This document shows positions 16,142 through 22,765 of a DNA stretch of 64,000 nt, piece by piece. How positions within the stretch are numbered: the stretch's first letter is position 1; every line of letters begins with the position of its first letter. The notes under the pieces are model-generated. The model saw only the letters and a program-made list of their open reading frames with translations, did not search any database and was not told where the DNA came from. The stretch comes from Escherichia coli (GTDB taxonomy: Bacteria > Pseudomonadota > Gammaproteobacteria > Enterobacterales > Enterobacteriaceae). The position numbers and the translations under genes were made by a program. The stretch lies in assembly GCF_011045215.1 (NCBI RefSeq), contig NZ_CP049202.1. The stretch is one strand, 5' to 3'.

Positions 16142-16468
16142 TCAGACCTTCGTTTTATCTTTGCAGACAAGAAACCATTGTCTGGATAATCTTTCGTTAT
16201 TTTCGTCGTAATCCACCAGACCGGCTTCATACAAAAAAGTCATACAGATACAACACTGACGTACAGATATATTCAGTCCGCACGCCATATCAATAACACG
16301 AAACATGACTTCACCATATTTATCCTCCCGTAATTTCATCCAGAGGAGCAGCGATTTACAGTCATCATAAAATAATGCGGTACTGTCCCTGCGTTTCATG
16401 GAGTTGTCACACATAGATAACCTCCTGCGTATGTGGAAATAACATACACACTGCAACAAATATTCCAT
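16142..16468 (-). CDS. PapI/PefI-like fimbrial regulator (true start probably internal)
   Basis: C-terminal ...FLYEAGLVDYDENNERLSRQWFL resembles PapI ...[23 protein letters not shown]; lies at the distal end of the fimbrial operon as pefI does. Confidence 0.45.
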   Translation of the reverse strand: MEYLLQCVCYFHIRRRLSMCDNSMKRRDSTALFYDDCKSLLLWMKLREDKYGEVMFRVIDMACGLNISVRQCCICMTFLYEAGLVDYDENNERLSRQWFLVCKDKTKV

Positions 16469-16951
16469 AAATATTTATATATTAAATTGTATTACCATAA
16501 CCCCGACATAATTTCTTTTTTGTACACCTGCAGACCTCCCTCATCCGGAGGATAATACCCCACACAGATATATTATCATGATATAAATCCTGTTATGGTG
16601 ATTATTATATTATAACCACATCCGCCAGACTGTATTTTTCAGATTCAGAATTGATTTTCACCGGAAAAAACTTTTCCGCTTTTCCCCCCTCTGTGGCGAT
16701 CAGACTGAATTACCGGGTGGGGTCATGGTACACCTGCCAGCATGTTCCATGCTTCTTTCAGATGCAGCCTGACATCACCCCGTTTTGACCTCCCGAAAAA
16801 ACACTTTGCTACTTATATCCCCCGGACACTGTTGTTATTCCTTCTACCACGACTGGCACGCCAACCCATCACGTTACGCAAGTAAGGCTTACTCACCCTC
16901 TTTACTCAGTCCTAACCAGCATACCCGAAGTCGATGTCAGTACCGCCATAC

Positions 16952-17797
16952 TTATGTGAGTACAATGTCGAGTGTGATCGAACCCTTAGTGACTCCCTTT
17001 GGCATCAATTCTGGTGTAACCCGCATTGTCATAACAGGGTCTTTACCAACGTCCAGTAGGAAAATATTCTGGTTCGTCTGAGTCCCCCCACTGATAGTTA
17101 TGGCACTGTCCGGAAGGTTGTTTAACCGATATGTTACACGCAGGCTTCCCGTTCCAGTGGCACGCATGAGTTCTACTTGTCGTTTGAGTGATGTGTCCAT
17201 GGTGATTGAGTCTGGATATGTTATTGTCACTGCAGGTGTCGTGGTATACTGCCCACTAAGATGGGCCCAATCACACTCTTCAGGATAGCCATTTGCTATT
17301 GCATATGGTCCCCCCTTGCGTCCGATTTTTAGACCGTTGGGAGGGTTGTAGATCCCGACAGCTGCAGTATATGCTGGTGCAAAGTTGCTTATTAGCTTGC
17401 CCTGAAAGTGAAATTGGTGAAGACCTTCTGATAGAGACACAGGCATATATAAGGTACGTTGGGAAATCCCATATTTATCAGTAGCTCCTGTTTGCCAACC
17501 TGGGACTATTTGTCCGTTTATTGTACCCTCGAACCTCCAGTCCTGGTCGCGCCAGTGATACATGTCAGTATCCACACACCACTGAAGCCCCTGCCCGCCC
17601 CCGCCCGCCAGTTGCGACGGTCCGAGATATAGATAGCCATTATATACCCCCCCTAGTGGTACGATGATATCTATTACGCTGTCGAATGCGAATGTGCGAA
17701 TCCCGTAGCTTAGCGTGACGGTTCCCGCTAATAGTTCCGCTGGCAGAGTTAACAAAAGGCATGCGATTGTACATTGTTTCAGGTTTCGTAATTGCAT
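16952..17797 (-). CDS. fimbrial operon distal protein (putative tip adhesin or minor subunit)
   Basis: 281 aa with signal peptide; last gene of the chaperone-usher cluster. Confidence 0.45.
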   Translation of the reverse strand: MQLRNLKQCTIACLLLTLPAELLAGTVTLSYGIRTFAFDSVIDIIVPLGGVYNGYLYLGPSQLAGGGGQGLQWCVDTDMYHWRDQDWRFEGTINGQIVPGWQTGATDKYGISQRTLYMPVSLSEGLHQFHFQGKLISNFAPAYTAAVGIYNPPNGLKIGRKGGPYAIANGYPEECDWAHLSGQYTTTPAVTITYPDSITMDTSLKRQVELMRATGTGSLRVTYRLNNLPDSAITISGGTQTNQNIFLLDVGKDPVMTMRVTPELMPKGVTKGSITLDIVLT

Positions 17798-17970
17798 ATT
17801 GAAATCTCAGTTATAGTCCTGTGTGTTATCCGTTAGCGCGGGTTCGTAGTAGAGCACTCGTGTTTATCTGACAGCCTGAAAAATAGTACACTCTCCGGAT
17901 ATCAGGCTGTCACACCTGGTCACTGATTGACGGGGTGTTTCTCAATTGCCTATGGCGACCTACAGGTTCC

Positions 17971-18531
17971 TCAGGGATAAACAACACCAAACGTCAGCGT
18001 GGTACTTATCGGTCCCCCTACAGTCGACGCCAGGATTTGGGTCACTGGTGTCAACGAGCAACTGTTCTTCACCGTATCTGAGGCTATTCCCGTGCAGAAT
18101 GGCGTCGGCGTGTCTCCTGAATTTATAGCTATCGGGGCCATACTGCCATCCGCCAGTGTCAGCCACAGATTGCCACTGGACTCCGTCGGGTTATCCACTC
18201 TGTACAGACCAACTTTATTACCGTATGCCTGATGCATCCCTGCAGGACGCAGGGTGAGTGCTGTATTCACCACAGCGTTATTTTCACAGGTCACCACGGC
18301 CTGAAAGGACGGGTGTGTCTGCCTCTGCCCCTTTAGCAAAACCGCCTGAAAGGTATACGTATTACCACTTAATATGGATGCGCCCTCAAACCCCACCTTA
18401 CAGGTGTTCGGCTGGTTTATGATGGTTATCGGGATGGTGATGGTTGTACTACCAGCAGCGATCACATCACATACTGGCAAAAGACTGCAGGCCAGCATCA
18501 GTACACCCAGTATTTCCCTTTTTCCTTTCAT
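17971..18531 (-). CDS. fimbrial minor subunit
   Basis: 186 aa, signal peptide, C-terminal beta-strand motif; follows the chaperone gene with overlap. Confidence 0.55.
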   Translation of the reverse strand: MKGKREILGVLMLACSLLPVCDVIAAGSTTITIPITIINQPNTCKVGFEGASILSGNTYTFQAVLLKGQRQTHPSFQAVVTCENNAVVNTALTLRPAGMHQAYGNKVGLYRVDNPTESSGNLWLTLADGSMAPIAINSGDTPTPFCTGIASDTVKNSCSLTPVTQILASTVGGPISTTLTFGVVYP

Positions 18532-21657: not shown

Positions 21658-21804
21658 GAAATAACACCTTGTTTTTTTAGTTAATTACCAATCAAAATAA
21701 GCCCCCAACAGAAACAAAGGGAAACCAAGTAAAGCTAAAAAAGAAAATTTTTTGACAGTATTCCGGGTATTACCCCGGAATACTTAATTTTGGTATAAAT
21801 AATA

Positions 21805-22353
21805 TTATTTATACCAGTAGTTAACGCGGGCGGTTGCCATCATGTCACCAACAATACTTCCACCTTTGAGGTTCATGGTATATTTCAGGCCATCACCTTT
21901 AACCACTGACGGTTCAAACTCATACTGAAATCTTTCAGTAGTAGCCATTTTATTGACGTTCGTTTTAGAGTTGGTTGCTTTAATTTGCACGTAGGAGTCA
22001 CTTGCCGCACCACTGGAAGCTTGCAAACCGTTAGCATTAATCTGGGAACCAACACCTTCCCATTGCATAACAAAATCAGTGTTACCTGCATTACAGGATG
22101 CAGCTGAATCTGTTGTCGGCTTAAATACCACTTCAACATCCGCCCCTAAAGTGTTCGGGTTGGTCTGTCCCAGTGCAACTGTATTTTTACCACTTACCCC
22201 TCCAACAGACGGGTCCAGTGCACAGGTTGTGGTGGAAACCGTACCGGAGAAATTCAGGTCCAGTGTACCCGCATTAGCATTCGGAGCAGCATTAGCCGCA
22301 CCACCAACAATCGCAGCCAGAGCCACAACAGAAGAAATGAGAGTTTTTTTCAT
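21805..22353 (-). CDS. major fimbrial subunit, PefA-like
   Basis: 182 aa, signal peptide MKKTLISSVVALAAIVGGAANA, conserved Cys pair, C-terminal LKGG...YWYK donor-strand motif; similarity to PefA is from memory. Confidence 0.8.
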   Translation of the reverse strand: MKKTLISSVVALAAIVGGAANAAPNANAGTLDLNFSGTVSTTTCALDPSVGGVSGKNTVALGQTNPNTLGADVEVVFKPTTDSAASCNAGNTDFVMQWEGVGSQINANGLQASSGAASDSYVQIKATNSKTNVNKMATTERFQYEFEPSVVKGDGLKYTMNLKGGSIVGDMMATARVNYWYK

Positions 22354-22510
22354 TTTTTATCCTTGCTTGAATAAGACAAACATAAACGACAGTACACAAA
22401 ATATTGGTGCACCTCTATGCTTCCTTTTATTTAGTCAAGGCAGCATAAAACTATACCAATTATGTACTAGTTACGGTGCACATAAATTTATATTCGAATA
22501 TACAATGCCA

Positions 22511-22765
22511 TCAATAAAATTGATTTAGCATACAAACAAGATGATACACTCGCACCAATCTGGCCAGACATACACTCAGATATCCGGGATTGACACCATA
22601 CCGCTCACAAACAATTTTTCTTGATTCTCCATAGACCACATGCCCACGAAGCGCATTTATCATCTTATTACTTCTGATTGATGATAACTCAATAAGCATA
22701 TTGAATTGTTTTTCCCTACACCCCCAAAAAGGGAATGCATCATAATGCATATACCTCTCACCCAA
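22511..22765 (-). CDS. PapB/PefB-family fimbrial transcriptional regulator (copy 1)
   Basis: ...LIELSSIRSNKMINALRGHVVYGESRKIVCERYGVNPGYLSVCLARL... matches the PapB/FaeA/DaaA family; directly upstream of the major subunit. Confidence 0.7.
   Translation of the reverse strand: MGERYMHYDAFPFWGCREKQFNMLIELSSIRSNKMINALRGHVVYGESRKIVCERYGVNPGYLSVCLARLVRVYHLVCMLNQFY

Follow-up and report, generated by a model that had tools for sequence, protein, structure and literature searches.

An uncharacterised PefC/AfrB-group chaperone-usher operon on an Escherichia coli IncF plasmid, with a candidate two-domain tip adhesin

When a fimbrial gene cluster in Escherichia coli has the gene order of the Salmonella pef operon, does it encode Pef, one of the fimbriae already named in E. 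coli, or something else? The question arises from seven intact open reading frames (ORFs) on the minus strand at 16142-22765 of a 64,000-nucleotide stretch of E. coli DNA (contig NZ_CP049202.1 of assembly GCF_011045215.1; this whole stretch is called the window below). The ORFs are, in order, a PapB-family regulator, a major pilin, an usher, a chaperone, a minor pilin, a 281-residue distal protein and a small ORF. An original prediction saw in them a plasmid-borne chaperone-usher operon of pef arrangement, with its own PapB-like and PapI-like regulators and a candidate adhesin at its distal end. Our analysis identifies the cluster as an uncharacterised, previously unnamed member of the PefC/AfrB chaperone-usher group. 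It is very probably a complete fimbrial operon of the kappa clade, within a subgroup formed by Pef, F18 and AF/R1, with a PefC/AfrB-type usher and a candidate two-domain tip adhesin.

Gene content and family membership

Aligned over its full length, the usher scores 979.4 bits against the PefC/AfrB family model (NCBIfam NF011760, cut-off 752), and the chaperone scores 335.6 bits against NF011758 (cut-off 248), so both belong to these families on the models' own terms; PapD_N and PapD_C domains are recorded for the chaperones of relatives, which are identical to that of the window. The PapB-like protein matches Pfam PF03333 (PapB) with an E-value of 2.1e-24 over model positions 24-91 of 91, the N-terminal 23 or so positions being absent, and is 100% identical in two relatives (loci L006 and L009). 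The usher and chaperone genes overlap by 8 bases and the chaperone and minor pilin genes by 4, as in coupled operons. The seven-gene operon of the original prediction and its PapB-like regulator are thereby borne out. The kappa clade of chaperone-usher systems includes F18 and AF/R1 (PMC5216030).

Pairwise comparison was made with three reference loci: a pSLT-like pef locus (L005), the F18 fed locus (L003) and an unnamed locus from a sheep E. coli (L004). The usher is 58.5% identical to PefC, 54% to the F18 usher and 56% to that of the sheep locus, and the chaperone 62% identical to PefD, 56% to its F18 counterpart and 58% to that of the sheep locus. The PapB-like protein is 49% identical to PefB and 43% to its sheep counterpart, the comparison not being applicable to F18. 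Identities are far lower among the pilins. The major pilin is 34% identical to PefA, 32% to FedA and 34% to the sheep pilin (E-values of about 1e-22 to 1e-23), and the minor pilin shares 34% identity with Pef Orf5 (E 1e-19) and 28% with FedE (E 3e-11), with no match in the sheep locus and none in Pfam. Both pilins nonetheless align with their homologues over the full length, with cysteine residues and C-terminal motifs conserved (VVYP in the minor pilin). Against the PefA equivalog model (NF011761) the major pilin gives an E-value of 5.5e-25 but only 88.5 bits, where the cut-off is 227. With a major pilin at just 34% identity to PefA and 32% to FedA, the operon is neither Pef nor F18. Identity of the major subunit with a characterised type, the finding that would have undone the original prediction, was not observed in the collections searched.

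The operon is also rare. At the DNA level, a 6.9-kb block containing it matched a single plasmid among the 72,556 of PLSDB and a single genome among 5,426 complete ones of E. coli, both matches being the same record, plasmid B of E. coli C5, isolated from a cow. This copy is 99.9% identical to that of the window, from which it differs by a handful of substitutions and intergenic single-base indels. No PLSDB plasmid other than that of C5 encodes a major pilin of at least 60% identity. The nearest other plasmid ushers (63-64% identical) are from sheep and goat E. coli, followed by Salmonella PefC at 59%. A closer relative exists in assembly GCA_902843475.1 (locus L013), a sister operon whose usher is 91% identical to that of the window, its chaperone 92%, major pilin 77%, minor pilin 68% and distal protein 28%. 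Literature searches on the C5 plasmid, on pef-like fimbriae of E. coli and on afrR/afrS returned no description of the operon, though coverage was incomplete and this is weak evidence.

The distal protein and its hypervariable N-terminal domain

The 281-residue protein occupies the position held by FedF in F18 and by Orf6 in Pef, and it is close to a sequence orphan. It has no match in Pfam or NCBIfam, none by sequence in the Protein Data Bank (PDB), and none by tblastn at E<=1e-5 in any PLSDB plasmid besides that of C5. A profile search of 1.84 billion cluster representatives, run with no word filter, returned its own cluster and one more 50%-identity cluster, P0006 (289 aa, E 1e-10), which is encoded in the sister operon. 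At 90% identity the adhesin forms only three clusters among 5.8 billion. The exact allele of the window (P0007) is present on 138 contigs, and sources that give the protein a name call it a 'hypothetical protein' or 'uncharacterised protein' of E. coli.

Three close allele groups were compared, among which the other proteins of the operon are 98-100% identical. Across ten sequence variants of the distal protein, residues 26-185 hold 53 of the 57 variable alignment columns. Between alleles, residues 26-184 have a rate of nonsynonymous change (dN) of 0.11-0.18 and a ratio to synonymous change (dN/dS) of 0.8-2.1, while residues 185-281 differ by one or two amino acids; the usher and chaperone are under strong purifying selection (dN/dS 0-0.06, and 0.03-0.06 for the usher). 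The ratio of nonsynonymous to synonymous changes in the N-terminal domain differs from that in the rest of the operon with Fisher p-values of 3e-6 to 2e-5. This variability of residues 26-184 is the pattern expected of a two-domain tip adhesin, and the size of the protein, its place as the last structural gene and the sharp boundary between variable and invariant parts near residue 185 all fit an adhesin of the FedF, FimH, PapG or F17G type. The proposal that the distal protein is a candidate adhesin thus gains from its position, size and hypervariable N-terminal half.

F18 supplies the functional model. In that system FedA serves as major and FedE as minor subunit, and FedF is a proven two-domain tip adhesin with its lectin domain at residues 15-165 (PMC4263667). 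Profile comparison gives a partial link to Pef. The C-terminal domain (the last 97 or so residues) aligns with the C-terminus of Pef Orf6 with an HHalign score of 29.3 over 85 columns, against 11.8 ± 1.9 (maximum 18.2) for column shuffles, and on this profile evidence the two are remotely homologous. The N-terminal domain has no HHalign similarity to Pef Orf6 or to pilins, and none to FedF in a whole-protein comparison; likewise, the adhesin family compared with FedF, with the 280-residue protein of the sheep locus and with the operon's own pilins gave nothing above noise. An AlphaFold 2 (AF2) model builds most of residues 35-185, approximately, from beta strands, with a model confidence (pLDDT) above 69 in that block, falling to 38-61 in residues 61-90 and 101-120.

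One further allele, P0012, looks mosaic, matching the window allele at some variable positions and P0002 or P0003 at others. This sharing of positions suggests recombination among adhesin alleles inside the N-terminal domain.

The sequences establish which genes are present, the families they belong to, how rare they are, how the alleles vary and the rearrangement described below; order of assembly, adhesin function, receptor binding and regulation are deduced from homologous systems. If the operon works as its relatives do, the five exported proteins, all of which have plausible signal peptides by inspection, would cross the inner membrane by the Sec route, and the chaperone would fold and cap the subunits in the periplasm. 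The usher would then polymerise them in order, the 281-residue tip protein first, next the 186-residue minor pilin, probably an adaptor between tip and shaft, and then many copies of the 182-residue major pilin. The conserved C-terminal domain would anchor the adhesin in the fibre, and the orphan N-terminal domain, diversifying between alleles, would bind a host receptor. Expression would probably be governed by the operon's PapB-family protein, by a second PapB and by a conserved Rob-like AraC regulator, and the small protein at the end of the operon may modulate it.

Control region and competing explanations

Several observations weigh against a functional fimbria with a receptor-binding tip. 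First, within the N-terminal domain taken alone, the excess of dN over dS is not significant (p 0.085), and dS itself is 0.05-0.16 there against 0.01-0.03 elsewhere, from which it follows that import of diverged alleles by recombination probably adds to the variability. Second, the C-terminal domain has no detectable similarity to the operon's own pilins, so that to call it a pilin domain is an inference only. Third, binding by Pef has been attributed to the fibre and we know of no defined tip adhesin in that system, so the F18 analogy may not carry over. Fourth, fimbriae, adhesion and expression are here predictions from gene content. Finally, insertion of IS2 and an inversion may have silenced the copy in the window.

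This last point requires a closer look at the control region. Collinearity with C5 plasmid B and with L006 and L009 ends at 23126, 361 bp upstream of the PapB-like gene, where the insertion sequence (IS) IS2 begins, its terminal repeat starting at 23127. The next 882 bp of the native upstream region (L006 3762-4643) are absent from the window. The native locus also extends beyond the span of the original prediction, since a Rob-like AraC-family gene and a second PapB-family gene (PapB2) belong to it, split from the operon by IS2 and an IS110-family element. The AraC protein aligns over its full length with NCBIfam RobA (E 2.8e-22), has an N-terminal helix-turn-helix, and shares 34% full-length identity with the AraC regulator of the sheep Pef-like operon L004, whose gene lies immediately upstream of that operon, next to a PapB-like gene. 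PapB2 is 52% identical to the operon's own PapB-like protein and 38% to PefB. An AraC gene and a nearby PapB gene flank every close relative and the sister operon, the PapB2 counterpart lying beside the AraC gene and carrying the Pfam PapB domain in all relatives. In C5 and every relative the AraC gene is divergent from the operon; in the window the two have the same orientation, the block of AraC, PapB2 and toxin/antitoxin genes being inverted relative to C5, and the PapB2-AraC segment (26647-28715) relative to L006 and L009 as well.

In the window copy the distal control region has been severed by IS2 and the AraC/PapB2 block inverted; the structural genes are intact, but expression may be altered or silent. 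The strong form of this idea is that the operon is a silent relic, its genes whole and unexpressed since IS2 removed the distal promoter and control sequences and the activator genes AraC and PapB2 were turned round and carried about 3.7 kb away. The missing 882 bp and the inversion relative to C5 and all relatives speak for it, as does a promoter scan that found no coding-strand sigma-70-like site upstream of the PapB-like or major pilin genes, though that scan found fewer sites than in shuffled sequence and is uninformative. Set against this, the seven ORFs are intact with few substitutions relative to C5, and the single coding change checked, which falls in the usher, is synonymous. The plasmid still carries AraC and PapB2, both of which work in trans, and IS2 can itself supply outward promoter elements. 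The window moreover retains the proximal 361 bp and the spacer between regulator and pilin genes, and in pef there are separate promoters before pefB and pefA (PMC12388093). We regard silencing as possible, and on balance doubtful.

Dam methylation of GATC sites, to which Lrp binds together with PapI or PefI, controls both Pap and Pef (PMC12388093). In the pef locus (L005) two GATC sites, at 8140 and 8242, are spaced by 102 bp and precede pefB by 113-215 bp. GATC is absent from 20973-23482 of the window and, in intact relatives, from the roughly 690 bp upstream of the PapB-like start codon. With no GATC pair upstream, a canonical Pap/Pef methylation switch is not evident and was rejected. The operon has in common with Pap a PapB-family protein and a remote FaeA/PapI-like winged helix, but Pap belongs to the pi clade, has a GATC pair in its control region, and carries papI divergent from papB, whereas the PapI-like gene of the window is at the far end of the operon. 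A 71-aa ORF in the upstream region (22797-23012, minus strand) was considered and rejected as a gene, its runs of Phe, Val and Cys being the translation of a T-rich tract. That tract (22797-23037, minus strand), which gene callers render as a 79-aa protein in relatives, is probably curved or H-NS-type regulatory DNA rather than a gene.

The PapI-like regulator of the original prediction survives in part. The 90-aa ORF has no Pfam match, FaeA (PF04703) included, even at E<=10, and no NCBIfam match; it is not a FaeA member by the family's own model, and BLASTP against PefI gives an E-value of 1.4. Against a six-member FaeA/PapI profile built from proteins of the fetched loci, in contrast, HHalign gives a probability of 92.6%, an E-value of 4.5e-7 and a score of 38.0 over 67 columns, where 200 column shuffles give 10.1 ± 2.2 with a maximum of 19.3 (an earlier four-sequence profile scored 28.9 against 9.9 ± 2.0), and the alignment covers essentially all of PefI. 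The ORF is kept at the same position in all close relatives, and recognisable FaeA/PapI genes hold the equivalent end position in L013 and in the sheep and goat plasmid loci CP057208 and NZ_CP041414. We accept it, on these profile matches and its position, as a remote PapI/FaeA-like winged-helix protein. Its single-sequence AF2 model has a mean pLDDT of 57, too low to confirm the fold, and Foldseek found nothing meaningful for it in the PDB; a sequence search of PDB chains with it and with the major pilin gave no useful match either.

A different doubt concerns the tip. The 281-residue protein could be a structural or assembly component, such as a terminator, an anchor or an invasin-like accessory, its variability due to immune selection and binding residing in the major pilin, as in K88. 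In K88 (F4), also of the kappa clade, adhesive capability lies in the polymerising subunit (PMC4263667), and for the window protein no lectin fold was recovered, nor any sequence similarity to FedF. Yet the major pilin is 99% conserved among alleles in which the N-terminal half of the distal protein varies, and the distal protein is some 100-120 residues larger than a pilin, conserved in its C-terminal third and variable in the other two, like two-domain tip adhesins. It also holds the FedF position in an operon whose other parts are homologues of FedA and FedE. A purely structural role is in our view improbable.

Could the operon instead be a variant of F18 (fed) or AF/R1 (afr), that is, a known colonisation factor under another name? 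F18, of porcine enterotoxigenic (ETEC) and Shiga toxin-producing (STEC) E. coli, has the same structural order, from major pilin through usher, chaperone and minor pilin to a distal protein of about 280-300 residues, so that fedA-usher-chaperone-fedE-fedF fits the cluster as well as the pef order does; the NCBI family name pairs PefC with AfrB, and FedA and FedE are detectable homologues. The identity levels of FedA, FedE and the usher argue otherwise, as do comparisons with FedF (BLASTP E 1.9, HHalign E 0.31), and identity with F18 was rejected on FedA and FedF. No PapB- or PapI-like gene is annotated in the F18 locus examined. F18 is porcine, whereas the one sourced carrier of the window operon is a cow isolate and its nearest other ushers lie on sheep and goat plasmids. 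For AF/R1 (afrABCDE, afrRS) the comparison is indirect, with no Afr sequences aligned; outside C5, PLSDB holds neither a major pilin at or above the 60% level nor an adhesin at E<=1e-5. No named fimbrial type was found to match within these comparisons, and we consider a renamed F18 or AF/R1 very unlikely.

That the operon is the Salmonella pef operon itself, or a direct orthologue moved to E. coli and switched by PefI, Lrp and Dam, can be set aside: the order is indeed that of pefBACD-orf5-orf6-pefI, as the original prediction had it, with a PapB-family gene first, a small winged-helix gene last and an IncF virulence-type plasmid as carrier, and Pef proteins are the closest characterised usher, chaperone, PapB-family protein and minor pilin, but orthology was rejected on the identity levels, the PefA cut-off, the FaeA model, which misses the small ORF, and the absence of any counterpart to the GATC pair upstream of pefB, sites that Pef regulation needs (PMC12388093). 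In its N-terminal domain the distal protein is likewise unrelated to Orf6, and Pef has srgC downstream where the locus type of the window has the Rob-like AraC gene and second PapB upstream. An uncharacterised operon of the PefC/AfrB group is the reading we retain.

Relatives, plasmid setting and significance

Coordinates of the operon, its control genes and neighbouring features are collected in Table 1. For the PapB-like gene the likelier start is an ATG at 22750 behind GAGAGG, giving 79 residues, which is also the call in L006 and L009. The small ORF would encode 108 residues if started at 16468, but relatives and RefSeq call the 90-residue form.

Table 1. Features of the fimbrial locus and its surroundings, in window coordinates
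Feature	Coordinates	Strand	Details
Alcohol dehydrogenase, iron-containing	14373-15551	-	plasmid-borne
Rop-family ORF	15976-16128	-	50 aa; ColE1-type RNA-binding modulator
Small ORF, divergent winged-helix, remotely FaeA/PapI/PefI-related	16142-16414	-	90 aa
Distal protein, candidate two-domain tip adhesin	16952-17797	-	281 aa
Adhesin residues 185-281, nearly invariant C-terminal domain	16955-17245	-	presumed pilin/anchoring domain
Adhesin residues 26-184, hypervariable N-terminal domain	17246-17722	-	presumed receptor-binding domain
Minor pilin, homologue of Pef Orf5 and F18 FedE	17971-18531	-	186 aa
Periplasmic chaperone	18528-19238	-	236 aa; NCBIfam NF011758
Outer-membrane usher, PefC/AfrB family	19231-21657	-	808 aa; NCBIfam NF011760
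Hairpin between major pilin and usher genes	21757-21784	-	perfect 11-bp stem then T-rich run; terminator-like scan
Major pilin, PefA/FedA homologue, distinct type	21805-22353	-	182 aa
PapB-family transcriptional regulator	22511-22765	-	84 aa from TTG at 22765; Pfam PF03333
Native upstream control region, retained 361 bp	22766-23126	-	very T-rich, no GATC
IS2	23127-24457	-	TnpB NF006918, 724.7 bits, and OrfA ORF; right-hand end estimated from usual IS2 length
IS110-family element	24633-25697		
Second PapB-family gene (PapB2) of native locus	26872-27204	-	displaced and inverted
Rob-like AraC-family regulator of native locus	27396-28241	-	281 aa; displaced and inverted
ISL3 transposase fragment	28765-29415		

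The hairpin between the major pilin and usher genes lies in a segment (21700-21804) with a predicted RNA fold of -28 kcal/mol (z -3.3), which none of 200 shuffles matched. It is probably a partial terminator, acting as a read-through attenuator, or a stabiliser of pilin mRNA, and would in either case set the ratio of pilin to usher; hairpins of this sort are usual in comparable operons.

The carrier is an E. coli plasmid of IncF type. The window contains CopA, sok and antisense-traG RNAs, and large ORFs match F-type tra genes by size alone. Upstream of the operon is a nest of IS66, IS21, IS110 and IS3 elements, with IS2 and the IS110-family element directly beyond the PapB-like gene, and the F-like plasmid and IS setting of the original prediction are therefore as described. 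The block past these two elements, which runs to 29466, contains a RelE-like toxin and its antitoxin, the second PapB gene, the Rob-like AraC gene and the ISL3 fragment.

At the other end, the Rop-family ORF begins 14 bases past the 90-aa ORF. Pfam Rop is recorded for the copies of relatives and the C5 copy is so annotated in RefSeq, while an NCBIfam search gave no match; such a gene is odd for an IncF plasmid. Its position is kept in C5 and in L006, L008 and L009, the three relatives' loci where the region was read. Because it is conserved at the same spot, 14 bases away, it is probably co-transcribed with the 90-aa ORF. The alcohol dehydrogenase gene beyond it matches the YiaY / L-threonine dehydrogenase equivalog (792 bits, cut-off 581) and, like the operon, is present in C5 and on the longer contigs of each group of relatives.

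Apart from a 98%-identical protein in the sister alleles, the only relative of the 90-aa ORF is an 81%-identical 'hypothetical protein' of 83 residues (P0005), widespread in E. coli (609 index blocks). P0005 is encoded in a plasmid module (L014-L021) whose genes specify a polysaccharide deacetylase, a GT4 glycosyltransferase, a DUF535 protein, a 315-aa protein that carries no annotation, P0005 itself, a DUF4056 protein and an AraC regulator, an arrangement resembling the virulence-plasmid shf-capU-virK-msbB2 cluster. Upstream, seven of the eight loci examined carry a genuine FaeA gene along with three ORFs of 309-319 residues, none with a Pfam match; in L017, the eighth, this place is taken by genes for a YadA-type adhesin and an AraC protein.

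Other uncharacterised operons place the window in a wider group. Those of sheep and goat E. coli (CP057917, CP057208 and NZ_CP041414) and the sister operon L013 have in common with it the usher family and the plasmid setting, and none has been characterised. L013 shares its whole architecture, AraC and PapB2 included, and its distal protein is the sole distant homologue detected for the adhesin. More remote are the sheep and goat operons, with ushers only 56-64% identical and distal proteins unrelated at E<=1e-5. The gene preceding the pilin is PapB-like in L004 and L013 and an unnamed 'transcriptional regulator' in CP057208, and none is listed in the goat locus. At the end where the window has the divergent 90-aa ORF, CP057208, NZ_CP041414 and L013 carry a bona fide FaeA/PapI gene. 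Both CP057208 (L022, sheep) and NZ_CP041414 (L023, the goat STEC719 plasmid) are IncF plasmids of ruminant E. coli with an operon of the PefC/AfrB family; the goat locus encodes two chaperones and, distally, three small ORFs, and in the sheep locus a gene annotated 'transposase' occupies the position of the distal protein.

Envelope-modifying genes recur beside these operons. In L013 (11159-15830) the adhesin gene is followed by genes for a polysaccharide deacetylase, a glycosyltransferase, a lipid A acyltransferase and MipA, then by FaeA and an AraC fragment, and a link between Pef-like fimbrial operons and genes modifying lipopolysaccharide or the envelope is seen also in L022. A gene for a 550-aa PMT/ArnT-like glycosyltransferase adjoins the second PapB gene in L006, L007 and L009-L012 (positions 1-1458); it is not beside that gene in the L008 contig, the window or C5.

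What the operon adds is incremental. Uncharacterised chaperone-usher operons are common, and no concept is therefore challenged by an unnamed and rare one of the Pef/F18/AF-R1 group on conjugative IncF plasmids. Its one distinctive feature is a presumed receptor-binding domain that is diversifying and is a sequence orphan, in an adhesin with essentially no detectable relatives. Fimbrial tip adhesins help to set the host and tissue that are colonised, and are targets for vaccines and anti-adhesion agents, as with FedF of F18. Among ruminant-associated E. coli, many toxigenic strains, ETEC of cattle producing the type II heat-labile toxin (LT-II) among them, have no known adhesin (PMC13293299). 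It is a tentative suggestion, one we hold with less than even confidence, that the operon and the sister operon encoding P0006, with its adhesin of about 28% identity, are an unrecognised colonisation factor of ruminant-associated E. coli, the sourced carrier so far being the cow isolate C5. If so, allelic diversification of the adhesin would mirror selection driven by host receptors or by immunity. Should the adhesin prove functional, the catalogue from which livestock E. coli are typed would gain a colonisation factor, and the three allele groups would form a compact natural experiment in how an adhesin diversifies.

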